From an uncultured Acidobacteriota bacterium (GTDB taxonomy: Bacteria > Acidobacteriota > Vicinamibacteria > Fen-336): a stretch of 64,000 bases of DNA. Positions within the stretch are counted from its first letter, which is position 1. Each line of letters opens with the position of its first letter. The stretch spans positions 298,983-362,982 of the forward strand of contig CADEEV010000001.1 of the NCBI GenBank assembly GCA_902826455.1. Reading direction: 5' to 3'. This document shows positions 25,836 to 63,966 of the stretch, in pieces. Under the pieces are notes generated by a model. The model was not told where the DNA came from. It searched no databases and saw only the letters and a program-made list of their open reading frames with translations. A program made the position numbers and the translations under genes.

Positions 25836-25854
25836 CCATGACACGCGTTTGGTC

Positions 25855-25876
25855 TTGACAGTCCTTCATTCTGTCA
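25855..25876 (+). promoter_or_regulatory. Putative promoter/operator upstream of the Rrf2 regulator gene
   Basis: TTGACA at 25855-25860, within the perfect inverted repeat TGACAG-N9-CTGTCA (25856-25876), about 30 nt upstream of the ATG at 25906. The region is locally AT-rich. Confidence 0.4.
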
Positions 25877-25905
25877 TCTAGTCTATCACTTCGATAGGCA
25901 TAGAT

Positions 25906-26355
25906 ATGAAAATTTCGCATCGGGGTCTCTACGCGCTCAAAGCGCTCGTTCACCTGGCCGCGGCCTACGAGCGCGGCCTCGTCAAGATCCACGAGATCGC
26001 CGAGCAGGAGGAGATCCCGGAGAAGTTCCTCGAGGGCATCCTCGTGACGCTCAAGAACGCGCGCGTCGTGAGCAGCCAGCGCGGCCGGGAGGGCGGCTAC
26101 CGCCTGCGCCGGCCTCCCGAGGAAATCGTCATGGGGGAAGTGGTCCGCATCGTGGACGGGCCGCTCGCGCCTTTCGGCGACGCCGTCGAGCTCCAGCATC
26201 GCATCCGCACCGAACCCCGGCAGGCCGGCCTGTTCCAGGTGTTCCTGGACGTGCGCAACGCGGCCTCCGCGATCCTCGACAAGACCACACTCGCCGACCT
26301 CGTCCAGCGCAACGCCCGTGTGCTGGCAGGTCGGGCCGTCAAGGGAGGGGCCTGA
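25906..26355 (+). CDS. Rrf2-family transcriptional regulator (CymR/IscR-like)
   Basis: 149 aa; Rrf2 wHTH (HRGLYALKALVHLA...IHEIAEQEEIPEKFLEGILVTLKNARVVSSQRGREGGYRL). Confidence 0.9.
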   Translation: MKISHRGLYALKALVHLAAAYERGLVKIHEIAEQEEIPEKFLEGILVTLKNARVVSSQRGREGGYRLRRPPEEIVMGEVVRIVDGPLAPFGDAVELQHRIRTEPRQAGLFQVFLDVRNAASAILDKTTLADLVQRNARVLAGRAVKGGA

Positions 26356-26376: not shown

Positions 26377-26646
26377 ATGTCTATTACCCCGCTAGAGGTT
26401 AAAGACACTACGCCCGGCGAACCCCAGCCGGGGGAGAAGCGCGTCCTCGCCGCGCTGCGTGGCCTCCGCTTCGGCTCGGTCGAAGTGGTGGTCCACGACG
26501 GCCGCATCGTGCAGATCGAACGCCGCGAAAAGGTTCGCCTCGAAGACGCGGACCGCCGCTCGCCGGGCGACCGGAAGCGGGAACCGAACCACAACGGCCG
26601 GGCTGACCGGATCTCCGGAGGCGCCGTCCCGGAGACAGAAGAATGA
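26377..26646 (+). CDS. DUF2292 (YezD-like) small protein with a C-terminal extension
   Basis: Core LRGLRFGSVEVVVHDGRIVQIERREKVRL matches YezD/DUF2292. The stop overlaps the porin start (ATGA). Confidence 0.6.
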   Translation: MSITPLEVKDTTPGEPQPGEKRVLAALRGLRFGSVEVVVHDGRIVQIERREKVRLEDADRRSPGDRKREPNHNGRADRISGGAVPETEE

Positions 26647-27905
26647 AGACGTACACGACGTGGCTTGGCGCCGTTGCGGTCGGCTTCCTGCTGGCCAGCG
26701 GCACCGCCGGGGCTCAGGGCAAGCCAAAGGAAGAGGCGCCGAAGCCCGCGGGCGTCAAGGTCGCCGCCGGCTCGGACGGCTTCGCGTTCCAGTCCGAGAG
26801 CGGCGACTTCAAGGTCCAGATCCGTGGTCTCGTCCAGGCCGACGCCCGCTTCTACGCCTCGGACAAGGGCAAGCTGGGGACCGACACGTTCCTGCTCCGG
26901 CGCGCGCGGCCCATCGTCACCGGCTCGGCCGGCAAGTACTTCGAGTTCAACCTCACCCCCGACTTCGGCGGCGGCCAGGCCGTGATCCAGGACGCCTACG
27001 CGGACATCAAGTTCAACGCGGCCGCGCGCCTGCGCGCCGGCAAGTTCAAGCCGCCGATCGGCCTCGAGCATCTCCAGTCCGACCCGATCCTGCCCTTCGT
27101 GGAGCGCGCACTCGCCGCGAGCCTCGTCCCGAACCGCGACGTCGGGCTCCAGCTCTCGGGCGACCTGGGCGGCGGCGTCGTCTCCTACGCCGTGGGCGTC
27201 TTCAACGGCACGGCGGACGGGGGCAGCGTCGATCTCGACGTGAACGACGGCAAGGACGCGGTGGGCCGCTTGCTGTTCACGCCGTTCAAGAAGGGCCAGT
27301 CCCCCGCGAGCGGCCTGAGCTTCGGGATCGCGGGCTCGTCTGGCAAGCAGTCGGGCGCCCCGTCCGCGTATCGCACCGGCGGCCAGCTCTCGTTCTTCAG
27401 CTACGCCACGGGCGTCGTGGCCGAGGGCGATCGCAGCCGCCTCGCGCCTGAGCTCTCGTTCTTCCACGGGCCGGTCGCGATCATCGCGGAGTACGCCCGC
27501 TCGAAGGCCGGGATCAAGAAGACCGCCACCTCCGAGCGCCACTCGATCGAGGCCAGGGGCTGGCAGGCGACGGCGGGCTTCTTCCTCACGGGCGACACCG
27601 CGTCCTTCTCGAGCGTCAAGGTCAAGAAGCCCTTCGATCCGTCGAAGGGCCAGTGGGGCGGCTTCGAGCTCGTGGCCCGCGTCAACGCCCTCGAGATCGA
27701 CGACGACGCCTTCAGCCTGGGCCTCTCGGACATCACGAAGTCCGCGCGCAAGGCGACCGCCTGGGGCGTCGGATTCAACTGGTACGTCAACAACAACATC
27801 CGCCAGGCCATCTCGTACGAGCGGACCAGCTTCGATGGCGGCGCCGCCACGGGCGACCGGCCCGACGAGAACGCCCTCTTCATTCGCACCCAGCTTTCCT
27901 TCTAA
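26643..27905 (+). CDS. OprO/OprP-family anion-selective outer-membrane porin (in the sulfate-uptake operon)
   Basis: 420 aa; signal peptide; beta-barrel alternation; C-terminal F; family motifs shared with the oprP paralogue at 55042. Confidence 0.85.
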
Positions 27906-27927: not shown

Positions 27928-28935
27928 ATGAATTCGAATCGCAAGGCTTTCCTGGCCGTCGCGCTCGCCGTCGGCCTCGCACGCTCGGCATACGCCGCGG
28001 ACGCCACGCTCCTCAACGTCTCCTACGATCCCACCCGCGAGCTCTACTCGGAGTACAACGCCGCGTTCGCGAGGTACTGGCAGGGCAAGACCGGCAAGAC
28101 CGTGGAGATCCAGCAGTCCCACGGCGGCTCGGGCAAGCAGGCCCGCGCCGTGATCGACGGACTCGAAGCCGACGTCCTGACCCTCGCCCTCGCCTACGAC
28201 GTCGACGAGGTCGGCAAGAGCGGCCTGTTCGCCGCCGACTGGCAGAAGAAGCTCCCGAACAACAGCGCGCCCTACACCTCGACCATCGTGTTCCTCGTGC
28301 GCAAGGGCAACCCGAAGGGCATCAAGGACTGGAACGACCTCGTGAAGCCGGGCACCTCGGTCGTCACGCCCAACCCGAAGACCTCGGGCGGCGCTCGCTG
28401 GAACTATCTCGCGGCCTGGGGCTACGCGCTGCGTCAGCCCGGCGGCAACGAGCAGAAGGCCCGCGCGTTCGTCACGGCGCTCTTCAAGAACGTGCCGGTG
28501 CTGGACTCCGGCGCCCGCGGCTCGACGAACACGTTCGTGCAGCGCGGCATCGGCGACGTGCTGCTCGCGTGGGAGAACGAGGCCTACCTGTCGGTCAACG
28601 AGCTCGGCCCCGACAAGGTCGAGATCGTGACGCCGTCGGTGAGCATCCTGGCCGAGCCGCCCGTGGCGGTCGTGGACAAGGTCGTCGACAAGAAGGGCAC
28701 GCGCGCCGTGGCCCAGGCCTACCTCGAGTACCTGTACTCGCCCGAGGGCCAGGAGATCGCGGCCAGGCACTACTACCGCCCGCGCCTCGCGGCCGTGGCC
28801 CAGAAGTACGCGGGCCGCTTCGGCAAGGCGCCGCTGTTCACCATCGACGAGGTGTTCGGCGGCTGGGCGAAGGCCCAGAAGGCGCACTTCGACGACGGGG
28901 GAGTCTTCGACCAGATCTATCAGCCCTCGAAGTAA
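27928..28935 (+). CDS. sbp: Periplasmic sulfate/thiosulfate-binding protein
   Basis: Signal peptide; Sbp/CysP fold motifs ([29 protein letters not shown]). Start reassigned to MNSNRKAF. Confidence 0.9.
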
Positions 28936-28995
28936 ACGGAGAATCCGCAGGCTCTCGCGCCCGGCGGGCCTCGCGAAGCCTGCCGGGCCTCTTGT

Positions 28996-29853
28996 GTGTT
29001 GAGTGAGGTCACGGTCTTGTCCAGCGTCGTCCTGAAACGTCACAGCGTCCTCCCCGGCTTCGGGCTCACCGTGGGTTACACGCTGCTCTACCTGAGCCTC
29101 ATCGTCCTGCTGCCGCTCTCGACCCTCGCGTTCAAGAGCAGCTCCCTGGGCTTCGACGCGTTCTGGACCACGGTCAGCTCGGCGCGCGTCGTCGCGTCCT
29201 ACAAGCTGACGTTCGGCGCGTCGCTGGCTGCGGCCACGATCAACGCCTTCTTCGGCTTGATCGTCGCCTGGGTGCTCGCGCGCTACACCTTCCCCGGGCG
29301 CCGCCTCGTCGACGCCATCGTGGACCTGCCCTTCGCGCTGCCCACGGCCGTTGCGGGCATCGCGCTCACCACCCTGTACTCGGAGAACGGCTGGCTGGGC
29401 GCGCCCCTCGCGAGGATGGGCGTCAAGGTGGCGTTCACGCCCCTGGGCATCACCCTGGCCCTGACCTTCATCGGCCTGCCCTTCGTGGTGCGCACGCTGC
29501 AGCCCGTCATCGACGAGCTCGATCCCGAGCTCGAGGAGGCCGCGGCCAGCCTCGGCGCCTCGCGGGCCCAGACGCTGTTCCGCGTCGTGCTCCCGGCGCT
29601 GCTGCCGGCCTGGCTCACGGGCTTCGCCCTCGCCTTCGCGCGCTGCCTCGGCGAGTACGGCTCCGTCGTCTTCATCGCCGGCAACATGCCCATGCGCACC
29701 GAGATCACGCCGCTCCTGATCATCACGAAGCTCGAGCAGTACGACTATCCGGGCGCAACGGCCATCGCGGTGGTGATGCTCGTGGCGTCGTTCGTGCTGC
29801 TGCTCGGCATCAACCTCCTGCAGTCCTGGAGCGGCCGGAGGCTCGCGGCATGA
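28996..29853 (+). CDS. cysT: Sulfate ABC transporter permease CysT
   Basis: 6 TM; EAA-loop region ([21 protein letters not shown]). Confidence 0.9.
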
Positions 29854-30701
29854 AGCGGCGTGTGCTGACGGAGCCGAAGCCCGTGCGCGTGGCCCTGATC
29901 CTCGTGTCCCTCGCGTTCCTCGCCGTGTCCCTCGTGCTGCCCCTGGCGCTGGTGTTCGTCGAGGCCTTCTCCAAGGGTGCTGCCGCCTACGCCGCGGCGA
30001 TCCGCGAGCCCATGGCCCTGTCGGCCCTGAGGCTCACGCTGCTGACGGCCGCGATCGCGGTGCCGGCGAACCTGGTCTTCGGTCTCGCCGCATCGTGGGC
30101 CATCGCGAAGTTCGACTTCTGGGGCAAGAACGCCCTCATCACCCTCATCGACCTGCCGTTCGCCGTCTCGCCCGTGATCTCCGGGATGATCTTCATCCTG
30201 CTGTTCGGGCGACTCGGGACGTTCGGGCCGTTCCTCCAGGGCCACGACATCAAGATCGTCTTCGCGATTCCCGGCATCGTGCTCGCCACGGTCTTCGTGA
30301 CGTTCCCCTTCGTGGCCCGCGAGCTCATCCCTGTGATGCAGGCGAGCGGGTCCGAGGAGGAGGAGGCGGCCCGCGTGCTGGGCGCCAGCGGCTGGCAGCT
30401 GTTCTGGCGCGTCACGCTGCCCAACGTGAAGTGGGGGCTGCTCTACGGCGTGATCCTGTGCAACGCCCGGGCGATGGGCGAGTTCGGCGCGGTCTCCGTC
30501 GTGTCCGGCCACATCCGCGGCAAGACCAACACGCTGCCGCTCCACGTCGAGATCCTCTACAACGAATACCAGTTCCAGGCCGCCTTCGCGGCCGCGTCGC
30601 TCCTGGCGTTCCTGGCCCTCGTCACGCTGCTGGCCAAGAGCTTCATCGAGTGGCAGACCGGCCGGCGCGCGAGCGCCGGCTCCGTGGAGAACGAAGCATG
30701 A
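29850..30701 (+). CDS. cysW: Sulfate ABC transporter permease CysW
   Basis: 6 TM; EAA loop ([21 protein letters not shown]); ATGA-coupled to cysA. Confidence 0.9.
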
Positions 30702-31678
30702 GCATCGAAGCCCGCAACGTCACGAAGCGATTCGGCAGCTTCGTGGCCGTCGACGACGTGAGCCTCGTGTTTCCCGGGGGCGAGCTGACGGCGCTGCTCG
30801 GCCCGTCGGGCTCCGGCAAGACCAGCCTGCTGCGCATCATCGCAGGCCTCGAGCGCGCGGACGCCGGCCAGGTCCTCTTCGAGGGCGAGGACGCCACCGG
30901 GCGCGACGTGCGCCAGCGCGGCGTCGGCTTCGTGTTCCAGCACTACGCCCTGTTCCGGCACATGACGGTCTTCGACAACATCGCGTTCGGCCTGCGCGTG
31001 CGGCCGCGGGCACGCCGTCCCGGCGCCCCCGAGATCCGCGCGAAGGTCATGGACCTCTTGAAGCTGGTCCAGCTCGACTGGCTCGCGAACCGCTACCCGA
31101 GCGAGCTCTCGGGCGGACAGCGCCAGCGCGTGGCGCTCGCGCGCGCCCTGGCCGTCGAGCCCAAGCTTCTCCTGCTCGACGAGCCCTTCGGGTCCCTCGA
31201 CGCCAAGGTGCGCCTCGAGCTGCGGCGCTGGCTGCGCCGGCTCCACGACGAGATCAAGCTGACGAGCGTGTTCGTGACCCACGACCAGGAGGAGGCCCTC
31301 GAGGTGTCCGACCGTGTCGTCGTGATGAACAAGGGCCACGTCGAACAGGTCGGCTCGCCGCAGGAGGTCTTCGACCAGCCGAAGACCTCCTTCGTCATGA
31401 ATTTCCTCGGCCAGGTGAACGCCGTGAAGGGCGGCTACGTGCGGCCCCACGAGTTCGAGCTGGCGCGCTCGGCCGACGCGCCCGAGGGCTCGTGGGCCGA
31501 GGTCCGCCACATCCACATGGCGGGCGCCGTCGTGAAGCTCGAGCTCGTCGACGAGGCGAAGAACGTGCTGCTCGTCGAGATGAGCCGCGACCGCGCCGAC
31601 GCCCTCGCGCCCCGGGTCGGCGAGCGGCTGTTCGCGTGGCCGCGGCGGCTGCGGAGCTTCGAGGCCGCGACCGTCTAG
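30698..31678 (+). CDS. cysA: Sulfate ABC transporter ATP-binding protein CysA
   Basis: Walker [24 protein letters not shown] signature, Walker B LLLDEP, and a C-terminal TOBE-like domain. Confidence 0.9.
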
Positions 31679-54960: not shown

Positions 54961-55000
54961 TTAACGTCCCGTTCACGCGTCCGTCACGCCGGCGTCACGC
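54961..55000 (+). promoter_or_regulatory. Pho-box-like direct repeat array upstream of oprP
   Basis: TTAACgtcccg-TTCACgcgtcc-GTCACgccggc-GTCACgc, four pentamer cores at exact 11-bp phasing, 40-80 nt upstream of the oprP ATG (55042), which has an AAGGAGG RBS. Confidence 0.45.
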
Positions 55001-55041
55001 ACCCCTCCTAAGTTGACGGCATCTCAAGGAGGCGTGTTTTG

Positions 55042-56517
55042 ATGACAGCCAAGGCGATCCGGCGCGGTCTCGCGACGGCAGCAGCGGTTCTGATCGGCGT
55101 GGGACTCACGGCCAGTGCCTGGGCCCAGAATTTCTTCTATCGCGAGATCGTGAAGGACGGGCGCATCTACGTCTTCGCCATCGCGAAGGAAGCGGAGCAG
55201 TTCGAGAAGTCGGGCGAGGTCGGCCGCGCGATCACGAAGCTCGGCTACGGCCCGAACGGCGAGACCATGGTCTTCGACAGCGAGGACGCCATCGGCCTCT
55301 ACAACATGAAGCACGACCGGCCCGGCGACGTCACCGCGGTCGCGAAGCCCGTCGTCGCGCCCAAGCAGCTCCTCACCTACAAGGACGGGCAGCTCACGGC
55401 CGAGTTCGACAAGGCACAGGTGAGCTTCACGAATCGCCTCCAGCTGCGCTTCACCCAGCAGATGCCCGACGAGACGGTGCAGCTCGCCGGGACGTCGGCG
55501 AAGGGCGACGGCAAGGGCTCCTTCCGCATCCGCCGCTACGAGCCCCAGTTCCAGGGCTGGCTCTACACGAAGGACCTCACCTTCAAGCTCGAGTTCGCGT
55601 TCCAGGACCTGCAGGGCAACACGAACTCCGGCGCCATCAACGACGCCTACTTCAACTACGACCTCACGAAGGGCAAGAAGGCGTTCCGCCTGCAGTTCGG
55701 TCAGTTCAAGGTGCCCTTCGGCCGCCAGGAGCTGACCTCGTCCTTCAACCAGACCTTCGTCGACCGCTCGATCGTGGCGGGCGAGTTCGAGCGCGGCCGT
55801 GACCTGGGCTTCCAGGTGGACGGCCTGCTCGCCTCCAACAAGGTCGAGTACCGCGCCGGCATCTTCAACGGCCGCGCCAGCAACACGGGCCGCAACCAGA
55901 CCGCGAACGACAACGACAAGTACCAGTACGACGCGCGTCTCATGTGGCAGCCCTTCGGCGACGTCCGCTACTCGGAGAGCGACTTCGAATCGGTGGACAA
56001 GCCGCTCCTCGCGATCGCCGGCGGGTTCGAGAGCCTCGACCTCGGGCTGACGGTGCCGCAGCCTGCGGCCACCGTGCCGCCCGCGCCGCCCGCGACGCCG
56101 CTGCCGAAGATCTCGGCCTGCCCGTGCGCGGCCGGCAACTACAAGTGGACGATCTTCGCCACCGACGTGGTCTTCAAGTACAAGGGCTTCTCCGCGATGG
56201 GCGAGCTCTTCAACCGCGAGATCAAGCCCTCGGACGGCGCGACGCCGGACTCGCCGACGTTCAAGTCGAACGGCTATCACGTCCAGGCGGGCTACCTGCT
56301 CAACAAGAAGCGGACCTGGGAAGTGGCGTTCCGCTACGCCTCGTTCGATCCCACGAACGCCGTCTCGGGCAACGACCGCACGGAGATCGGCGGCGGACTG
56401 AACTGGTTCTACAACAAGCACTTCGCGAAGATCCAGGCCGACTGGCGTCAGCTCGAGGACAAGGCGAAGAAGACGAAGGACCAGGAAGTCCGCATCCAGA
56501 CGCAGCTCTACTTCTAG
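55042..56517 (+). CDS. oprP: Phosphate-selective porin OprO/OprP
   Basis: 492 aa; signal peptide; beta-barrel; C-terminal F. Immediately upstream of pstSCAB. The track ORF starts at TTG 55039; ATG 55042 is preferred. Confidence 0.85.
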   Translation: MTAKAIRRGLATAAAVLIGVGLTASAWAQNFFYREIVKDGRIYVFAIAKEAEQFEKSGEVGRAITKLGYGPNGETMVFDSEDAIGLYNMKHDRPGDVTAVAKPVVAPKQLLTYKDGQLTAEFDKAQVSFTNRLQLRFTQQMPDETVQLAGTSAKGDGKGSFRIRRYEPQFQGWLYTKDLTFKLEFAFQDLQGNTNSGAINDAYFNYDLTKGKKAFRLQFGQFKVPFGRQELTSSFNQTFVDRSIVAGEFERGRDLGFQVDGLLASNKVEYRAGIFNGRASNTGRNQTANDNDKYQYDARLMWQPFGDVRYSESDFESVDKPLLAIAGGFESLDLGLTVPQPAATVPPAPPATPLPKISACPCAAGNYKWTIFATDVVFKYKGFSAMGELFNREIKPSDGATPDSPTFKSNGYHVQAGYLLNKKRTWEVAFRYASFDPTNAVSGNDRTEIGGGLNWFYNKHFAKIQADWRQLEDKAKKTKDQEVRIQTQLYF

Positions 56518-56613: not shown

Positions 56614-56671
56614 CCAGGCCCTCGCTAGATTGAGGGACATGGAAAAGCGGTTCGCCCCGGAGGTAGGTCTC

Positions 56672-57637
56672 ATGAAGCGTATCGTCGCTGCCGTCGCTCT
56701 CGTCGCGGCCGGTGCGGCCACGGCCGGCGCCCAGCAGGTGAAGGTCGATGCCGCGATCACGTCGTACCAGAAGACGTCGGGTGTCTCGGGGAACCTGAAC
56801 AGCGTCGGTTCCGACACCATGAACAACCTGATGACGCTCTGGGCCGAGGCGTTCCTCAAGATGTACCCGAACGTGAAGGTGCAGGTCGAGGGCAAGGGCT
56901 CCTCGACGGCGCCGCCCTCGCTGATCGCGGGCACGTCGCAGTTCGGCCCCATGTCCCGCGCGATGCGTCCGACGGAGATCGACCAGTTCGAGACGAAGTA
57001 CGGCTACAAGCCGACGCAGCTCCGCACGTCCTACGACGCCCTCGCGATCTACGTGAACAAGGACAACCCCCTCGACAAGCTGACCCTGGCCCAGGCCGAC
57101 GCGGTCTTCTCGAAGACGCGCCGCCGCGGCTTCAAGCAGAACGTCACGACCTGGGGCCAGCTCGGTCTCACGGGCGACTGGGCGAACCGGCCGATCAGCA
57201 TCTACGGCCGCAACTCGGCCTCGGGCACCTACGGCTTCTTCAAGGAGCACACCCTCGGCAACGGCGACTTCAAGGACACGGTCAAGGAGCAGCCCGGTTC
57301 GGCGTCGGTGGTGCAGGGCGTGACCGAGGACCGCTTCGGCATCGGCTACTCGGGCATCGGCTACAAGACCTCCGGCGTCAAGGTCGTGACGCTCGCCGAG
57401 AAGGACGGCTCGGCCTACTCCGACGGCAACTACGAGGACGTGAAGAGCGGCAAGTACCCGCTCAACCGCTTCCTCTACCTCTACATCAACCGCGCGCCGG
57501 GCAAGCCCCTCGACCCCGTCGTGAAGGAGTTCTGCAAGCTGATCTTCAGCAAGGAAGGCCAGGACGTCGTGCTCAAGGACGGGTACCTGCCGCTTCCGGC
57601 CGAGATCGTGCGCCAGGAACTCGCGAAGCTCGAGTAG
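56672..57637 (+). CDS. pstS: Phosphate ABC transporter substrate-binding protein PstS
   Basis: Signal peptide; PstS family motifs (SGNLNSVGSDTM, GTYGFF). Start at MKRIVAAV with a GGAGG RBS. Confidence 0.9.
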   Translation: MKRIVAAVALVAAGAATAGAQQVKVDAAITSYQKTSGVSGNLNSVGSDTMNNLMTLWAEAFLKMYPNVKVQVEGKGSSTAPPSLIAGTSQFGPMSRAMRPTEIDQFETKYGYKPTQLRTSYDALAIYVNKDNPLDKLTLAQADAVFSKTRRRGFKQNVTTWGQLGLTGDWANRPISIYGRNSASGTYGFFKEHTLGNGDFKDTVKEQPGSASVVQGVTEDRFGIGYSGIGYKTSGVKVVTLAEKDGSAYSDGNYEDVKSGKYPLNRFLYLYINRAPGKPLDPVVKEFCKLIFSKEGQDVVLKDGYLPLPAEIVRQELAKLE

Positions 57638-57715: not shown

Positions 57716-60013
57716 ATGGCCGCAGCCGCTCCAGCCCCCCTCAGCATCCGGCAGCGCGTCAAGGAACAGGCGTTCCGCATCAAGCGCGTGAAGCAGATGG
57801 ACCGCCTGGCGGTCGGGTTCATCACCTTCGGCGGGCTCTTCATCATCGTCGCGGTCCTCTTCATCTTCGTCTTCATCCTGTCGGAAGCGCTGCCGCTGTT
57901 CCGGCCGGCCACTGGCCAGGCCCGCGGCGTCGTGAACCTGGCCGCCGTGCCGCCGCCGACCCTCCCGCCGGCGACCGTGGCGACGGCGCCCGCGCCCAAG
58001 GCCGCCAGCCCCGGCGAGCTGGGCAAGCCCCTGGTGATGGGCACCGACGAGTACCAGCTCTACTTCTACGAGCTGCTGTCGGACGGCCGCACGGCGTTCT
58101 TCAAGACCGACGGCACGTTCGCCAAGGAGGTCACGTCGACGGCCCTGGCTCCGTCCAAGGTCGCCTCGGCGTCCCGCAGCCTCACCGACAACTTCGTGGC
58201 GATCGGCACCGACGACGGTCGCGTGCTCCTGCAACAGGTGCGCTTCCGTCCGCGCTACGAGAACCAGAAGCTCGTCGACCTCGAGACCGAGGTGAGCGAG
58301 CGCGGCGTGGTCGAGCTCGACGCCGCGAAGCGGCCGATCCGCGAGATCGCCTACGACGAGAAGGACGGCCGCAAGACGGCGATCGCGGTGGCGGGAGACG
58401 ACGACATCCTCGTCTACCGCACGGACGACGACGGCACCGAGCACCGCGAGGCCCTGAAGACCCGGGACGGCGAGAAGGTCACGCGGGTCCGCATCGGCCG
58501 CAGCGACACCCTGATCGCGGCGACCGACAGGGGTCACCTGTACCACTGGGAGCTCCTGCCCGAGGTGCGCCTCACCGAGGTGGTGAAGGTCTCGAACGAG
58601 CCGATCACCGCGGTCGAGTACGTGCTCGGGGGCATCACGGCCATCGTGGGCGACGCCAAGGGGAACCTGAGCGCGTGGTTCCGCGTGCGCCTGCGCGAGG
58701 ACGACACCGACCTCAAGTTCGTGAAGGCTCACGAGTACGCGCCGCAGGGCGTCGTCATCGCCGCGATCGGCCCGTCGACCCGCGACAAGAGCTTCGTGAG
58801 CGCCGGCTCCGACGGCTCCCTGGTGCTGCGCCACATGACCTCGGAGCGCAGCCTGCTCGAGTTCCCGTCGACCCAGGCGCCCGTGGACTCCGTCCTGCTG
58901 ACGCCCAAGATGGACGGGATCCTCGCGAAGCAGGCCGATGGCAAGGTGGCCCGCTACGAGATCTCGAGCCCGCATCCCGAGGTGTCCTGGCGCGCGCTCT
59001 TCGGCAAGGTCTGGTACGAGGGCTACACGAAGCCCGAGTACGTCTGGCAGTCGACCGGCGGCACCGACGACTTCGAGACCAAGTTCTCGCTGGTGCCGCT
59101 CGTCTTCGGCACGATCAAGGGCACGCTGTATGCGCTGCTCTTCGCGATACCCCTGGCGATCCTGGGGGCGCTCTACACGTCGCAGTTCATGCACCCGTCG
59201 ATCAAGGCGCGGGTCAAGCCGACGGTCGAGATCATGGCCGCCCTGCCCAGCGTCGTGGTGGGCTTCATCGCGGGCCTCTGGCTCGCCTCGCGGGTGGAGC
59301 GCGAGATCGTGCCCGTGCTCCTGATGATGGTCCTGCTGCCGTTGTTCGGGACGCTCGGCATCCTGCTGTGGGATCGGCTGCCGCGCGCCTTCCGCGACCG
59401 TCTGCGGCCCGGCATGGAGATCGCGCTGATCGTGCCCCTCGTCTGCCTGGGCGGGGTGGTGGCCGTCTGGATCGGCCCGCTCACGGAGGCCGCGCTCTTC
59501 GGAGGCGACTTCCGGCTCTGGGTGAAGAGCGCCCTCGACGTGGTCTACGACCAGCGCAACTGCCTGGTCGTCGGCATCGCGATGGGCTTCGCGGTGATCC
59601 CCATCATCTTCACGATCGCCGAGGACTCGTTCTCGAGCGTGCCCCAGCACCTGACGGCGGCCTCGCTCGCCCTCGGGGCCAGCCGCTGGCAGACCGCGAT
59701 GCGGGTGGTCCTGCCGACCGCGAGCCCGGGCCTGTTCTCCGCCGTGATGATCGGCTTCGGCCGCGCCGTCGGCGAGACCATGATCGTGCTGATGGCCACC
59801 GGCAACACGCCGGTCCTCGACTGGTCGATCTTCAACGGCATGCGCACGCTCTCGGCGAACATCGCCGTGGAGATCCCCGAGGCGCCCTACGGCGGCACGC
59901 TCTACCGCACGCTGTTCCTCGCGGCCCTCGCGCTCTTCCTCATGACCTTCTTCGTCAACACGATCGCGGAGCTGATCCGCCAGCGGCTGCGCGACCGCTA
60001 CCGGGCCATCTGA
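57716..60013 (+). CDS. pstC: Phosphate ABC transporter permease PstC (long form with a large N-terminal periplasmic domain)
   Basis: 765 aa; the C-terminal ~300 aa carry the PstC TMs and EAA loop; the N-terminal ~450 aa are an extra domain, as in long-form PstC proteins. Confidence 0.9.
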   Translation: MAAAAPAPLSIRQRVKEQAFRIKRVKQMDRLAVGFITFGGLFIIVAVLFIFVFILSEALPLFRPATGQARGVVNLAAVPPPTLPPATVATAPAPKAASPGELGKPLVMGTDEYQLYFYELLSDGRTAFFKTDGTFAKEVTSTALAPSKVASASRSLTDNFVAIGTDDGRVLLQQVRFRPRYENQKLVDLETEVSERGVVELDAAKRPIREIAYDEKDGRKTAIAVAGDDDILVYRTDDDGTEHREALKTRDGEKVTRVRIGRSDTLIAATDRGHLYHWELLPEVRLTEVVKVSNEPITAVEYVLGGITAIVGDAKGNLSAWFRVRLREDDTDLKFVKAHEYAPQGVVIAAIGPSTRDKSFVSAGSDGSLVLRHMTSERSLLEFPSTQAPVDSVLLTPKMDGILAKQADGKVARYEISSPHPEVSWRALFGKVWYEGYTKPEYVWQSTGGTDDFETKFSLVPLVFGTIKGTLYALLFAIPLAILGALYTSQFMHPSIKARVKPTVEIMAALPSVVVGFIAGLWLASRVEREIVPVLLMMVLLPLFGTLGILLWDRLPRAFRDRLRPGMEIALIVPLVCLGGVVAVWIGPLTEAALFGGDFRLWVKSALDVVYDQRNCLVVGIAMGFAVIPIIFTIAEDSFSSVPQHLTAASLALGASRWQTAMRVVLPTASPGLFSAVMIGFGRAVGETMIVLMATGNTPVLDWSIFNGMRTLSANIAVEIPEAPYGGTLYRTLFLAALALFLMTFFVNTIAELIRQRLRDRYRAI

Positions 60014-61650
60014 TGAACGCCCTCGTGAAGTCCTGGCGGCGCGGCGATCCGATGGTGTGGTTCACCGGCAGCGCCCTGGGCATCTGCATCCTGATGATCG
60101 TGGGGCTCGTCCTCGTCATCCTCACCAACGGCTTGAGCTTCTTCTGGCCGAAGGCGCTGACGCAGCTCACCTTGAAGGACGGCAGCGTCCTCATGGGCGA
60201 GCTCGCGTCGAGCGAGCCCATCCCGAACCCGGGCCACCCCGACCACCTCCAGAAGCAGCGCCTGCTCGTGCGCGTGGGCAACCGCGACGTCTACGGCTTC
60301 GACTTCAAGTGGGTGCCCGAAGGCGACATCGCGAAGCAGGAGCGGCCTCGCGACGCCTACTTCGTGGAGCGCCGCGAGTACGGGCCGTTACTCGGGACGC
60401 CGGTCCGGGTGAAGCAGGGCGACAAGATCCTGGCCGAGGGCGCGGCCGCCGTCGAGCTCGCCCTCCCGGGCCTGATCGCCCGTGCTGCGGAGGACCGCTC
60501 CGCCATCGAGCGCATCGAGAAGCACGAGATCGGCGACATCAACTACGAGATCGAGCGTCTGCGGCTCGAGTCCCGCGCCCTCGACCTCGCGGCCAGCCGC
60601 GGCCAGGACGTGGCCGAGAAGCGCGCCGACGTCGAGCGCGCCACGGCGGCCCAGAAGGCGCTGTTCCAGACGAAGACCGACGAGCTCGCCCAGCTCACCG
60701 AGCGCGTCGCCGGCACCTGGGTCGCCTTCGTCACCGCCGACGGCCAGGAAAAGGAGCTGCGGTCCCTCGACATCTACCGCTCCTACGCCGCGAACCAGCT
60801 CACCCTCCTCGGACGGCTCTCGGTCTACGGCGGCCGGCTCTGGGCCTTCTTCATCGAGGGTCCGCGCGAGTCGAACACCGAGGGCGGCATCTTCCCGGCC
60901 ATCTTCGGCACCGTGATGATGGTGATCATCATGAGCATCATCGTGGTGCCCCTGGGCGTGCTGGCCGCGCTCTACCTGCGCGAGTACGCGAAGCAGGGCC
61001 TGCTCGTCCGGATCGTCCGGATCGCGGTCAACAACCTGGCCGGCGTGCCGTCCATCGTCTTCGGCGTGTTCGGCCTCGGCTTCTTCGTGTACACCGTCGG
61101 CGGCACGATCGACGCATTGTTCTTCCCCGAGGCGCTCCCGACGCCGACTTTCGGCACCGGAGGCATCCTCTGGGCGGCCTTGACCCTGGCGCTCCTCACG
61201 GTGCCCGTCGTGATCGTGTCCTCGGAGGAGGCGCTCGCCGCCGTGCCGCGCTCGATGCGCGAGGCGTCCCTCGCCATGGGCGCCACGAAGTTCCAGACCA
61301 TCCTGCGCGTGGTGCTGCCGGCGGCCGCGCCCGGCATCCTCACGGGACTGATCCTCGCCATGGCGCGCGGCGCGGGCGAGGTGGCGCCGCTGATGCTGAC
61401 GGGCGTCGTCAAGCTGGCGCCCGAGCTGCCCGTCGACGGCTTCTTCCCGTTCTTCCACTTCGACCGGAAGTTCATGCACCTGGGCTTCCACATCTACGAC
61501 GTGGGCTTCCAGAGCCCGAACGTCGAGGCGGCGAAGCCCATGGTCTACACGACGACGATCTTCCTGCTCCTGATCGTGGTGCTCCTGAACCTCACCGCGA
61601 TCGTGGTCCGCAACCGGCTTCGCGAGAAGTACAAGACCGGCGCCTTCTAG
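60013..61650 (+). CDS. pstA: Phosphate ABC transporter permease PstA (long form)
   Basis: 545 aa; PstA TMs and EAA loop (EASLAMGATKFQTILRVVLP). The ATG overlaps the pstC stop (TGATG). Confidence 0.9.
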   Translation: MNALVKSWRRGDPMVWFTGSALGICILMIVGLVLVILTNGLSFFWPKALTQLTLKDGSVLMGELASSEPIPNPGHPDHLQKQRLLVRVGNRDVYGFDFKWVPEGDIAKQERPRDAYFVERREYGPLLGTPVRVKQGDKILAEGAAAVELALPGLIARAAEDRSAIERIEKHEIGDINYEIERLRLESRALDLAASRGQDVAEKRADVERATAAQKALFQTKTDELAQLTERVAGTWVAFVTADGQEKELRSLDIYRSYAANQLTLLGRLSVYGGRLWAFFIEGPRESNTEGGIFPAIFGTVMMVIIMSIIVVPLGVLAALYLREYAKQGLLVRIVRIAVNNLAGVPSIVFGVFGLGFFVYTVGGTIDALFFPEALPTPTFGTGGILWAALTLALLTVPVVIVSSEEALAAVPRSMREASLAMGATKFQTILRVVLPAAAPGILTGLILAMARGAGEVAPLMLTGVVKLAPELPVDGFFPFFHFDRKFMHLGFHIYDVGFQSPNVEAAKPMVYTTTIFLLLIVVLLNLTAIVVRNRLREKYKTGAF

Positions 61651-61656
61651 AAGGAA

Positions 61657-62511
61657 ATGAGCGCAATGTCCCAGGGAACGACGAAAGCGCCGCCCGACAG
61701 CGGGCTGCGCATCCGCACCGAGGTCAAGGCCGCCGTGGCGCCCGCCGCGGACAAGGGCGAGCCCGACATCACGATCGACGCGGTGAACCTGAGCTACGGC
61801 GACAACCACGTCCTCCACGACATCACCATGGCCATCGACGACCGGCGCGTGACCGCGTTCATCGGACCGTCGGGGTGCGGCAAGTCGACGCTGCTGCGTT
61901 GCCTCAACCGGATGAACGACCTCATCGACAACGTGAGGATCACCGGCAAGATCACGGTCAAGGGCCTCGACATCAACGCCGCCACGACCGACGTGATCGA
62001 GGTGCGGCGCCGCATCGGCATGGTCTTCCAGAAGTCGAACCCGTTCCCGAAGTCGATCTACGAGAACGTGGTGTACGGCCTGCGCATCGCCGGCATCAAC
62101 GACAAGGCGACCCTCGACGAGGCCTGCGAGCGCAGCCTCAAGGGCGCGGCACTGTGGGAAGAGGTGAAGGACCGCCTCGACGAGAGCGGGCTCGGGCTCT
62201 CCGGGGGACAGATGCAGCGGCTCTGCATCGCCCGCGCCATCGCCGTCGAGCCCGAGGTGATCCTGATGGACGAGCCCTGCTCGGCCCTGGACCCGATCGC
62301 CACCCTCAAGATCGAGGAGCTGATCTACGGCCTCAAGGACAAGTACACGATCGTGATCGTGACCCACAACCTGCAGCAGGCCGCCCGGGTCTCGGACAAG
62401 ACGGCGTTCTTCTGGCTCGGCAGGCTCGTGGAGTACAGCCCGACGGCCGACATGTTCACGAAGCCCGGGGACAAGCTGACGGAGGACTACATCACTGGCC
62501 GGTTCGGTTAG
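61657..62511 (+). CDS. pstB: Phosphate ABC transporter ATP-binding protein PstB
   Basis: Walker [25 protein letters not shown] signature, Walker B ILMDEP. Confidence 0.95.
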
Positions 62512-62566: not shown

Positions 62567-63244
62567 ATGGAACGCCATCATTTCGAAGACGACCTGCAGG
62601 CCCTGAAGCAGCGCCTGCTGACGATGGGCGCCCTCGTCGAGGAGCGCGCGCACCAGGCGATCGCGGCGCTCATCCACCGGCGCCTGGACGAGGCGGAGGC
62701 GGTGATCGCGGCCGACAAGGAGGTCAACGACTTCCAGATCGAGATCGACGACCGCTGTCTCAAGCTCCTGGCCCTGCAGCAGCCCATGGCCACGGACCTG
62801 CGCCTCATCACGTCGGCCATGAAGATCAACGCCGATCTCGAGCGCATCGGCGACCAGGCCGTGAACATCGCCGAGAACACGATCAAGCTCCTGCCCCAGC
62901 CCCCGCTCAAGCCGCTCATCGACATTCCGCGGATGGCCGACATCGCGGAGAAGATGACGCGCGACTCCCTCGACGCCTTCGTGCGCAAGGACGCCGAGCT
63001 CGCGAGGAGCGTGCTCACGCGAGACGACGAGGTGGACCAGCTCAAGGACCAGGTCTTCCGCGAGCTGCTCACCTACATGATGGCGGACCCCGGCACGATC
63101 CAGCGGGCCCTCGCCCTGATCCTCATCAGCCGCAACGTGGAGCGCATCGCCGACCACGCCACCAACATCGCCGAGGACGTGATCTTCCTGGTGGAAGCGA
63201 AGGACGTGCGCCACGGCCGTGAGAACGAGGAGGTGGAGAAGTGA
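62567..63244 (+). CDS. phoU: Phosphate signalling complex protein PhoU
   Basis: 225 aa; two PhoU repeats (ERIGDQAVNIAE / ERIADHATNIAE). Confidence 0.9.
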   Translation: MERHHFEDDLQALKQRLLTMGALVEERAHQAIAALIHRRLDEAEAVIAADKEVNDFQIEIDDRCLKLLALQQPMATDLRLITSAMKINADLERIGDQAVNIAENTIKLLPQPPLKPLIDIPRMADIAEKMTRDSLDAFVRKDAELARSVLTRDDEVDQLKDQVFRELLTYMMADPGTIQRALALILISRNVERIADHATNIAEDVIFLVEAKDVRHGRENEEVEK

Positions 63245-63966
63245 AGGAGATCGACACGCGCCGCCGCGTCGTCCTCATCGAGGACGATCACGACATCGCC
63301 GAGGCCATCACCTACCACCTCGAGAAGGCCGGTCTGCAGGTGAAGGTCGCCCGGACCGGCGAGGAGGGCCTGGACGCCGTGCGCAAGGGAGTCGACCTGG
63401 TGCTCCTCGACCTCAACCTCCCGGGCATGGACGGCCTCGAGGTGTGCCGCCTGATCCGGCGCCAGGCCACGACGGCCCACGTGCCCATCATTATTGTTTC
63501 GGCCCGCGCCGACGAGGTGGACCGCGTCCTGGGCCTCGAGATGGGCGCCGACGACTACGTCGTCAAGCCGTTCAGCCTGAAGGAGCTCGCGGCGCGCTGC
63601 CGCGTCGCGCTGCGGCGCGCCGATGGCGGCGGGGAGGCTCCCCAAGGCTACCGGGACGAGAACTTCGAGGTCGAGTTCGACGCCTTCACCGTGCGCTACC
63701 GCGGCAGCGAGATCCGCCTGACGCCCAAGGAGTTCGAGCTGTTCCGCTACATGGTCGAGCGGGCCGGCCGGGTGCTCACGCGCGAGCGCCTTCTCGAGCG
63801 CGTGTGGGGCTACGAGAGCGACGTCGAGAGCCGCAGCATCGACGCCCACATCCGGCGCCTGCGCATGAAGCTGGGGGCGGCGCGCCACCACGTGGAGACG
63901 GTCGTGGGCATCGGCTACCGGTTCGTCAAGGACGCGAGCGCCGGCTCGTCGGCGCGCTCGGCCTGA
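63241..63966 (+). CDS. phoB: OmpR-family response regulator PhoB
   Basis: REC domain (LLDLNLPGMDG) plus winged-helix trans_reg_C (LTPKEFELFRYMV...GIGYRF). ATGA-type overlap with phoU. Confidence 0.9.
   Translation: MKEIDTRRRVVLIEDDHDIAEAITYHLEKAGLQVKVARTGEEGLDAVRKGVDLVLLDLNLPGMDGLEVCRLIRRQATTAHVPIIIVSARADEVDRVLGLEMGADDYVVKPFSLKELAARCRVALRRADGGGEAPQGYRDENFEVEFDAFTVRYRGSEIRLTPKEFELFRYMVERAGRVLTRERLLERVWGYESDVESRSIDAHIRRLRMKLGAARHHVETVVGIGYRFVKDASAGSSARSA

Follow-up and report, generated by a model that had tools for sequence, protein, structure and literature searches.

A porin of the OprO/OprP family as the probable outer-membrane component of a sulfate-uptake operon in an uncultured Acidobacteriota bacterium

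Introduction

High-affinity sulfate uptake across the inner membrane by the ATP-binding cassette (ABC) importer Sbp-CysTWA is textbook knowledge, and the preceding step, passage of sulfate through the outer membrane of Gram-negative bacteria, is commonly credited to general porins. A stretch of 64,000 nucleotides from an uncultured Acidobacteriota bacterium (contig CADEEV010000001.1, positions 298,983 to 362,982; hereafter the window, with a G+C content of about 70%) raises the question of whether this outer-membrane step can have a porin of its own. The window encodes two members of the porin family to which the Pseudomonas aeruginosa channels OprP and OprO belong: one, here called porin A, lies among sulfate transport genes, and the other, porin B, lies among phosphate transport genes. 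An initial annotation had read the two as paralogues that became specialised for sulfate and phosphate, respectively, each at the head of an anion ABC operon. Our literature search found no sulfate-specific porin, with most subscription journals outside the search and an earlier mention therefore possible. Judging from gene order, regulatory signals and conserved residues, all of them read from sequence, we consider it reasonably probable that porin A serves as the outer-membrane part of an operon for sulfate uptake under sulfur starvation, rrf2-oscA-like-porin-sbp-cysTWA, and it is from the same features that we infer its selectivity. Coordinates below count from the first nucleotide of the window, and all features for which they are given lie on the plus strand.

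The two porin genes

Porin A is encoded at 26,643–27,905 from an ATG start and has 420 amino acids according to the open reading frame listing and its translation. It opens with a Sec-type leader (…AGA/QG), ends in phenylalanine and matches the Pfam family PF07396 (Porin_O_P) over residues 58–420 with 128 bits (E = 6e-37; gathering cutoff 20.9 bits). Porin B (55,042–56,517) likewise has a Sec-type leader and a C-terminal phenylalanine and matches PF07396 with 84 bits (E = 1.6e-23; same cutoff). An AGGAGG ribosome-binding site precedes its ATG at 55,042, from which the product has 491 residues, and public gene calls record exactly this protein. The length of 420 amino acids first assigned to porin A thus stands; the 492 first assigned to porin B at 55,042 are obtained from a TTG at 55,039. 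A tblastn search of the window found no third Porin_O_P member, and the count of two given earlier is correct. Among NCBIfam models both porins match ExtI alone, and weakly (27–50 bits against a cutoff of 150), and the collection contains no model for the clade of either porin. The nearest relatives of both are found in assemblies of Vicinamibacteria (Acidobacteriota). Together with AlphaFold models, Foldseek searches and gene order (synteny for porin A, ortholog order for porin B), the Pfam matches identify porin A as a 16-strand anion porin of the OprO/OprP family and porin B as a member of the same family with an extra N-terminal domain.

The sulfate operon around porin A

The operon has the gene order rrf2, oscA-like, porin A, sbp, cysT, cysW and cysA, and porin A is its third gene. 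The Rrf2 gene and the DUF2292 gene precede porin A in the same orientation, so that it is not the first gene of the operon; the earlier statement that each porin heads its operon applies to porin B, which precedes pstSCAB, and has to be given up for porin A, which stands behind rrf2 and the oscA-like gene. The identity of the transport genes downstream of the two porins, sbp-cysTWA and pstSCAB, was borne out by matches to curated models. The sbp gene (27,928–28,935; ATG start checked) encodes a periplasmic sulfate-binding protein that scores 556 bits against NF008022 (cutoff 288) and 499 bits against TIGR00971, and its score against the model of the thiosulfate-binding protein CysP is lower, at 351 bits. 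The sulfate ABC permease genes cysT (28,996–29,853; TIGR02139, 415 bits, cutoff 246) and cysW (29,850–30,701; TIGR02140, 406 bits, cutoff 329) follow, and then the ATPase gene cysA (30,698–31,678, start checked; TIGR00968, 387 bits, cutoff 343), which overlaps cysW in an ATGA, so that all four components of the importer lie above their curated cutoffs. The stop codon of the oscA-like gene overlaps the start of porin A in the same way (ATGA, 4 nt) and a gap of 22 nt separates porin A from sbp, an arrangement consistent with co-transcription. Pfam and NCBIfam annotation placed no sulfonate, sulfatase or molybdate genes in the operon, and a cystathionine gamma-synthase-like gene converges on its 3' end.

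The two genes upstream of porin A are of regulatory and small-protein families. The first (25,906–26,355) encodes an Rrf2-family regulator (Pfam Rrf2, E = 8e-33), whose family membership is firm (TIGR00738, 115 bits, cutoff 73); the best specific Rrf2 model in NCBIfam is CymR (NF047409, 97 bits against a cutoff of 195), with IscR at 62 bits. Rrf2 genes also lie upstream of many porin A relatives. The second (26,377–26,646) encodes a DUF2292/OscA-like protein of 89 amino acids (Pfam DUF2292, 62 bits, E = 3e-17, cutoff 22; NCBIfam OscA, 55.6 bits, cutoff 85). This protein has no signal peptide, and a direct partnership with an outer-membrane protein is therefore not obvious. Of the 80 related loci (the set is described below), at least 26 have a DUF2292 gene upstream of the porin, a conservative count, as an iterated hidden Markov model (HMM) was discarded for its drift onto unrelated reading frames. 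One database protein, P0106, is a fusion of DUF2292 and porin.

A related arrangement is known from Pseudomonas corrugata, where oscA and sbp are described as one transcription unit induced by sulfur starvation or chromate (PMC2996968, which cites Viti 2009). There the DUF2292/OscA gene stands directly 5' of the sulfate ABC genes, whereas in the window the porin A gene lies between them and an Rrf2 gene comes before. The Pseudomonas oscA-sbp unit is not known to contain a porin gene.

Conservation of the sulfate linkage

One genome per species was scanned with an alignment of porin A relatives, and 80 loci with 39–55% identity were kept, their flanks being assessed by tblastn with the proteins of the window. 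Their hosts belong to Acidobacteriota (three or four classes), Latescibacterota, Myxococcota, Verrucomicrobiota, Gemmatimonadota, Planctomycetota, Nitrospirota, Elusimicrobiota, Methylomirabilota, Desulfuromonadales, Gammaproteobacteria and others. Four of the 80 have too little flank and were set aside; in 70 of the 76 assessable loci, spread over at least 12 phylum-level lineages, the porin is linked to sulfate ABC genes. The gene immediately 3' of the porin is sbp in 66 of the 80, and in the other four linked loci the porin comes just after cysA (two), cysTWA follows the porin directly (one), or a read-through or frameshift masks the junction (one). By comparison, sbp, cysT and cysW were found in none of the control flanks, which comprised 78 OprP/OprO-type loci from metagenomes and 5 porin B-type loci.

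A variant arrangement occurs in loci of Thermoanaerobaculia/Holophagales (L009–L014, L016, L017, L020–L023, L025–L029 and others), in which a gene for a CysA-like ATPase lies about 1.5 kb upstream of the porin. The order there is cysA, an unassigned interval, porin, sbp, cysT and cysW, and no Rrf2 gene was detected in it.

Regulatory signals at the two loci

An AT-rich island occupies the 70 nt upstream of rrf2. Within it, the region 25,853–25,905, as read from the sequence, holds a TTGACA at 25,853, a –10-like TAGTCT and the palindrome CTATC-N5-GATAG at 25,883–25,897, which occurs once in the 64 kb against an expectation of 0.01. The same layout, TTGACA-N17-19-TAnnCTAT(C)-N5-(G)ATAGG, stands shortly before rrf2 in related loci of Acidobacteriota, Latescibacterota, Nitrospirota and Planctomycetota (L002, L004, L007, L008, L015, L024, L050, L052, L056 and L075). 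It resembles the site of an autoregulated Rrf2 repressor that overlaps its own promoter, and we regard the palindrome as a candidate operator. Since promoter and palindrome end only 5–10 nt before the rrf2 start codon, the mRNA may have little or no leader. The promoter was recognised solely through comparison of loci; scans of the window with sigma-70 and terminator consensus sequences gave no excess over shuffle expectation. For the same reason, that terminator-like sites in total do not exceed this expectation, a GC-rich hairpin between sbp and cysT (28,959–28,988; 11 pairs, 10 of them G-C; from the terminator-like scan) is a weak feature. It is a possible attenuator or mRNA stabiliser inside the operon and might govern how much binding protein is made relative to the membrane components.

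Porin B has a different signal. Three direct repeats with an 11-nt period, TTCAC-N6-GTCAC-N6-GTCAC, lie 45–70 nt upstream of it (54,972–54,998), and the pattern has no other match in the window (0.2 expected). PhoB sites, or Pho boxes, have an 11-nt periodicity. Similar repeats (KTCAY-N6-KTCAY-N6-KTCAY) stand at about –95 to –103 in the porin B orthologs L084–L086, and the element upstream of porin B is thus a candidate acidobacterial Pho box. The window pattern scan found no such repeats upstream of porin A. By context, then, the signs of a Pho regulon go with porin B, which has the Pho-box-like repeats and pstSCAB-phoU-phoB, whereas porin A has an Rrf2-type operator instead.

One fold and three clades

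The AlphaFold models of porin A (pLDDT 91.5, pTM 0.86) and porin B (pLDDT 89.5, pTM 0.77) both show 16 barrel strands after short N-terminal strands. Foldseek ranks OprO (3e-23) and OprP (7e-23; TM 0.71) first for porin A and OprP first for porin B (1e-19; TM 0.57–0.67), and the next porins follow at about 1e-12 to 1e-13, their E-values trailing those of OprO and OprP by six to ten orders of magnitude. When profiles were compared, each of the two matched a set of 26 OprP/OprO sequences with 99.4% probability, and the top phmmer match of porin A is again OprO (4e-9). OprP (PDB 2O4V) belongs to the same Pfam family as porins A and B and has the same 16-strand barrel and N-terminal strand extension. 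Its long periplasmic turn T7 is kept in porin A, in which loop L5 is about 22 residues shorter; T7 is absent from porin B, whose L5 is long, proline-rich and modelled with low confidence.

Within this common fold, a joint alignment of 135 sequences separates three groups, with identities of 39–100% within and 16–26% between them. Over trimmed alignment columns, A and B are 24% identical, and each is about 20–21% identical to OprP; BLASTP aligns A with B over just 149 residues (33.6% identity, E = 4e-13). These identities place porin A outside the OprP/OprO clade and make A and B ancient subfamilies. The sulfate-locus copy therefore does not cluster inside the OprP clade, an outcome that would have spoken against specialisation, and the term paralogues, which the initial annotation applied to the pair, is apt in the deep family sense only. 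A recent duplication within the genome was considered and rejected, given the 24% identity and the deep clade to which each porin belongs. The specialisation is ancient and lies between two widespread subfamilies; it is not a lineage-specific duplication.

A profile search of 1.84 billion representatives returned 13,061 representative clusters for the family. Of these, 1,903 reach E ≤ 1e-30, and the best 150 all exceed 398 bits and are 36–50% identical to porin A. At the 50% identity level, the porin A clade comprises no fewer than 150 representative clusters, and perhaps about 1,900.

The central site

For the comparison of constriction residues, the OprP reference was the full-length P. aeruginosa sequence from locus L088, in the mature numbering of the 411-residue chain of 2O4V, and full-length OprP and OprO sequences were recovered from metagenome contigs. 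HMMER and MAFFT agree on the residue mapping, as does hhalign except in strand 1, where its register contains a 5-residue gap; this register was dropped, and that of HMMER and MAFFT, with QAD and RF matched, was used.

The central phosphate-binding residues of OprP are D94, Y62, S124, S125, K121, K126, R34 and R133 (PMC5877670). Porin A is identical to OprP at two of these eight (S124 and R133) and departs from the OprP site, and porin B is identical at four (R34, S124, S125 and R133) and retains the site in part. At the R34 position, porin A has L63 and its clade tyrosine (73%) or leucine (21%), arginine not being among the commonest residues; porin B has R132, which is invariant in its clade (100%). 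The Y62 position is R89 in porin A (100% in the clade) and E167 in porin B, with lysine in 77% of the B clade. For D94, which we take to be the sole acidic residue in the OprP constriction, porin A has Q116 and its clade glutamine, phenylalanine, leucine or tyrosine, with no acidic residue among the commonest; porin B has N200 and its clade glutamate in 77%. K121 corresponds to H143 in porin A (arginine in 83% of the clade) and to E230 in porin B. S124 is kept in both clades (S146 in A, S233 in B), and S125 is replaced by D147 in porin A (alanine, glycine or aspartate in the clade) and kept as S234 in porin B (100%). The T123-S124-S125 of OprP thus reads Gln-Ser-(Ala/Gly/Asp) in the porin A clade. 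K126 is lost and R133 kept in both the A and B clades. Position 114, tyrosine in OprP and aspartate in OprO, is lysine in A (K136, 100%) and in B (K223, 96%).

These differences mean that the constriction residues of porins A and B are not identical; identity here would have been a second argument against specialisation. In summary, R34, Y62, D94, T123, S125 and K126 of OprP are replaced in porin A, which moreover, by context, belongs to a sulfate operon with an Rrf2-type operator rather than to a Pho regulon, and porin B keeps R34, T123, S124, S125 and R133, has a glutamate in place of K121 and carries the additional N-terminal domain. A column-by-column screen found R34, T123, S125, G50 and G296 to be present in at least 90% of both phosphate-linked clades and in at most 5% of the sulfate-linked clade. 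All three clades share a scaffold of R59, R60, S124, R133, R186 and R337, of which R59, R60, R133, R186 and R337 (R86, R87, R155, R209 and R346 in porin A), the family's basic track through the pore, are at least 95% conserved in each. The signature of the porin A clade persists in the 150 distant representatives with 36–50% identity, as R89 (95%), K136 (96%), R69 (92%), R266 (96%) and Q145 (84%), and arginine is not among the four commonest residues at their position 63.

OprO (PDB 4RJW/4RJX), which prefers diphosphate, is the best match of porin A in both sequence and structure. Its F62Y/D114Y mutant (4rjx) shows that specificity is set by few constriction residues, at positions 62 and 114 (PMC12653301). 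F62 and D114 of OprO stand opposite R89 and K136 in porin A and opposite E167 (lysine in most of its clade) and K223 in porin B.

The phosphate locus around porin B

Upstream of porin B lie genes for a PAP2 phosphatase and a phosphodiesterase, followed by a 340-nt spacer. Downstream come genes for a PstS-family phosphate-binding protein (56,630–57,637; TIGR02136, 255 bits), a long-form PstC permease of 765 amino acids with a beta-propeller-like insert (57,716–60,013; TIGR02138, 205 bits; weak WD40/beta-propeller Pfam matches), a long-form PstA permease of 546 amino acids (60,013–61,650, start checked; TIGR00974, 252 bits), the PstB ATPase (61,657–62,511; TIGR00972, 399 bits), PhoU (62,567–63,244; Pfam PhoU, E = 1e-49) and a PhoB-type response regulator with Response_reg and Trans_reg_C domains (63,241–63,966). 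The order porin-pstS-pstC(long)-pstA(long)-pstB is found in all three porin B orthologs on long contigs, with phoU, phoB or phoR nearby. By gene context, porin B would be the phosphate counterpart of porin A, a Pho-regulon porin that feeds PstS-PstCAB.

Two further properties of this locus were observed. PstC and PstA are about twice the usual length, and the long forms are kept in all porin B-type loci examined (L082, L084 and L085). The extra N-terminal domain of porin B, residues ~30–95 (about 65 residues), is conserved in its clade and is modelled as beta-beta-alpha-beta-beta-alpha with pLDDT mostly above 85. Neither Pfam nor the PDB yielded a sequence match for this domain, which OprP and porin A lack and which is presumably periplasmic.

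Discussion

The proposal that A is specialised for sulfate and B for phosphate is supported by conserved synteny, distinct regulatory signals and different central sites, and sulfate selectivity itself is what we infer from them. In the mechanism that we propose, transcription of the operon would probably start at the sigma-70-type promoter overlapped by the CTATC-N5-GATAG palindrome, and the co-encoded CymR-like Rrf2 protein, which by analogy may act like CymR, would probably repress it when sulfur is replete. Sulfate, possibly also thiosulfate, would bind to the shared basic track of porin A and hop along it from the medium to the periplasm, where Sbp would capture sulfate for import by CysTWA. 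The change of the central site, with R34, T123 and S125 replaced, an arginine at position 62 and no carboxylate at the D94 position, would shift the preference from phosphate to sulfate. Such a shift is proposed because phosphate donates a hydrogen bond to an acceptor, which fully ionised sulfate cannot do. The same hydrogen-bond logic operates in the periplasmic phosphate- and sulfate-binding proteins. Whether the porin A clade goes so far as to form genuinely sulfate-selective channels, with a filter derived from that of OprP by a small number of substitutions (Tyr/Leu for R34, Arg for Y62, Gln for T123 and Ala/Gly/Asp for S125) and with control by a CymR-like operator and an OscA-like protein, is a stronger claim, for and against which we see even chances.

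Several observations weigh against this interpretation. Synteny shows co-function and not specificity, and for six close relatives of porin A (L041, L044, L049, L065, L066 and L080) the available flanks contain no gene for sulfur uptake. No alternative anion transporter was found near L049 and L066 apart from a gene of the major facilitator superfamily (MFS) upstream in L066, and the flanks of L041, L044, L065 and L080 were screened by tblastn with the window proteins only; we treat the six as stray copies. The three verrucomicrobial outliers, L041, L066 and L080, cluster together. The matches to CymR and OscA fall below the curated cutoffs. Lumen orientation was assigned from homology and strand periodicity. 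The latter, which is ambiguous for several strands, puts Q116, the equivalent of D94, in the outward-facing phase, in conflict with the orientation expected of it, and the position is often hydrophobic in distant members; the argument from a lost carboxylate may thus be wrong. Porin A has a glutamate at position 270 (27,450–27,452), where 94% of its clade has glutamine and both phosphate-linked clades have aspartate or glutamate, and is thus atypical for its clade at this single signature column. Finally, neither clade has an alignable arginine at the columns of R218, R220, R226 and R242, which we take to be the loop-L5 ladder arginines of OprP, the loop lengths being different; porin A has other conserved arginines near L5 (R244, R264 and R266).

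How far do these points favour other explanations? Porin A might be a channel that is induced by sulfur starvation and passes small anions (sulfate, thiosulfate, phosphate, chloride) without preference, specificity residing in Sbp only. Porin A has kept intact the basic scaffold that it has in common with the phosphate porins, the arginine at position 62 and the lysine at 114 could just raise affinity for anions, and the lysine is found in the phosphate-linked clade B as well. We nevertheless think this unlikely: the changes at the central site are strongly conserved in over 150 representative clusters, at identities as low as 36%, a pattern suggestive of selection acting on a defined binding site, and the lost residues R34, T123 and S125 are exactly those that are invariant in both independently phosphate-linked clades. 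Less likely still is a specialisation for thiosulfate, sulfonates, sulfate esters, or selenate, chromate or molybdate, with sulfate not the main substrate. Thiosulfate, selenate and chromate are further substrates of sulfate ABC systems. The name OscA refers to organosulfur utilisation and chromate resistance (PMC2996968), and ExtI of Geobacter sulfurreducens, a distant PF07396 porin labelled phosphate-selective, is tied to selenite and tellurite and is not induced by phosphate limitation (PMC5877670), which makes it an earlier case of a Porin_O_P protein linked to an oxyanion other than phosphate. Its similarity to porins A and B is weak, as the NCBIfam scores given above indicate, and its gene context is one of cytochromes. 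Against such a substrate stand the adjacent binding protein, which scores far better as Sbp than as CysP, and the lack of sulfonate, sulfatase and molybdate genes among the operon's annotations.

We regard it as very improbable that porin A, like OprP and OprO, is selective for phosphate or polyphosphate and that its sulfate neighbours are functionally meaningless. The label phosphate-selective porin OprO/OprP that its relatives carry at JGI points that way, as do R59, R60, S124, R133 and the T7 turn, all retained in porin A; a further point that weighs against a sulfate porin is that porin A is nearer to OprP and OprO in sequence than porin B is, by both phmmer and tblastn. However, the linkage to sbp-cysTWA, seen across many phyla at 70 of 76 loci and at none of the 83 control loci, is difficult to reconcile with meaningless neighbours, as is the overlap with the OscA-like gene, which is of the translational-coupling type. 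The operator before porin A is of the Rrf2/CymR-like type with no Pho-box-like repeats, only two of the eight published central-site residues of OprP are identical, and the genome already has a Pho-linked porin. The reading of porin A as the outer-membrane component of a sulfate-uptake operon is thus the one that we retain.

A functional analogue is found in Mycobacterium tuberculosis, where PE22/PPE36 are reported to form a dedicated outer-membrane route for sulfate that is induced by sulfate limitation (2026 preprint 10.64898/2026.06.04.730267). These proteins belong to an unrelated family and to a different type of outer membrane. The porin A type, for its part, is a large and widespread subfamily labelled phosphate-selective porin that probably provides the outer-membrane step of sulfate uptake. 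If the porin A clade is indeed selective for sulfate, diderm bacteria would have in it their first known porin dedicated to this anion, and thousands of database entries named phosphate-selective porin OprO/OprP would be mislabelled. Such mislabelling would distort the readouts of phosphorus versus sulfur limitation that are drawn from soil metagenomics and metaproteomics, the main carriers being Acidobacteriota, Verrucomicrobiota and Gemmatimonadota. Porin A would also be a natural counterpart of OprP for the question of how narrow basic pores discriminate between two tetrahedral oxyanions and, since two independent phosphate-linked clades have the opposite residues, the family would offer a natural three-way experiment on sulfate versus phosphate pores. 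More broadly, an Rrf2 operator, an OscA-like gene, the porin and sbp would together constitute a conserved sulfur-starvation module in poorly studied phyla.

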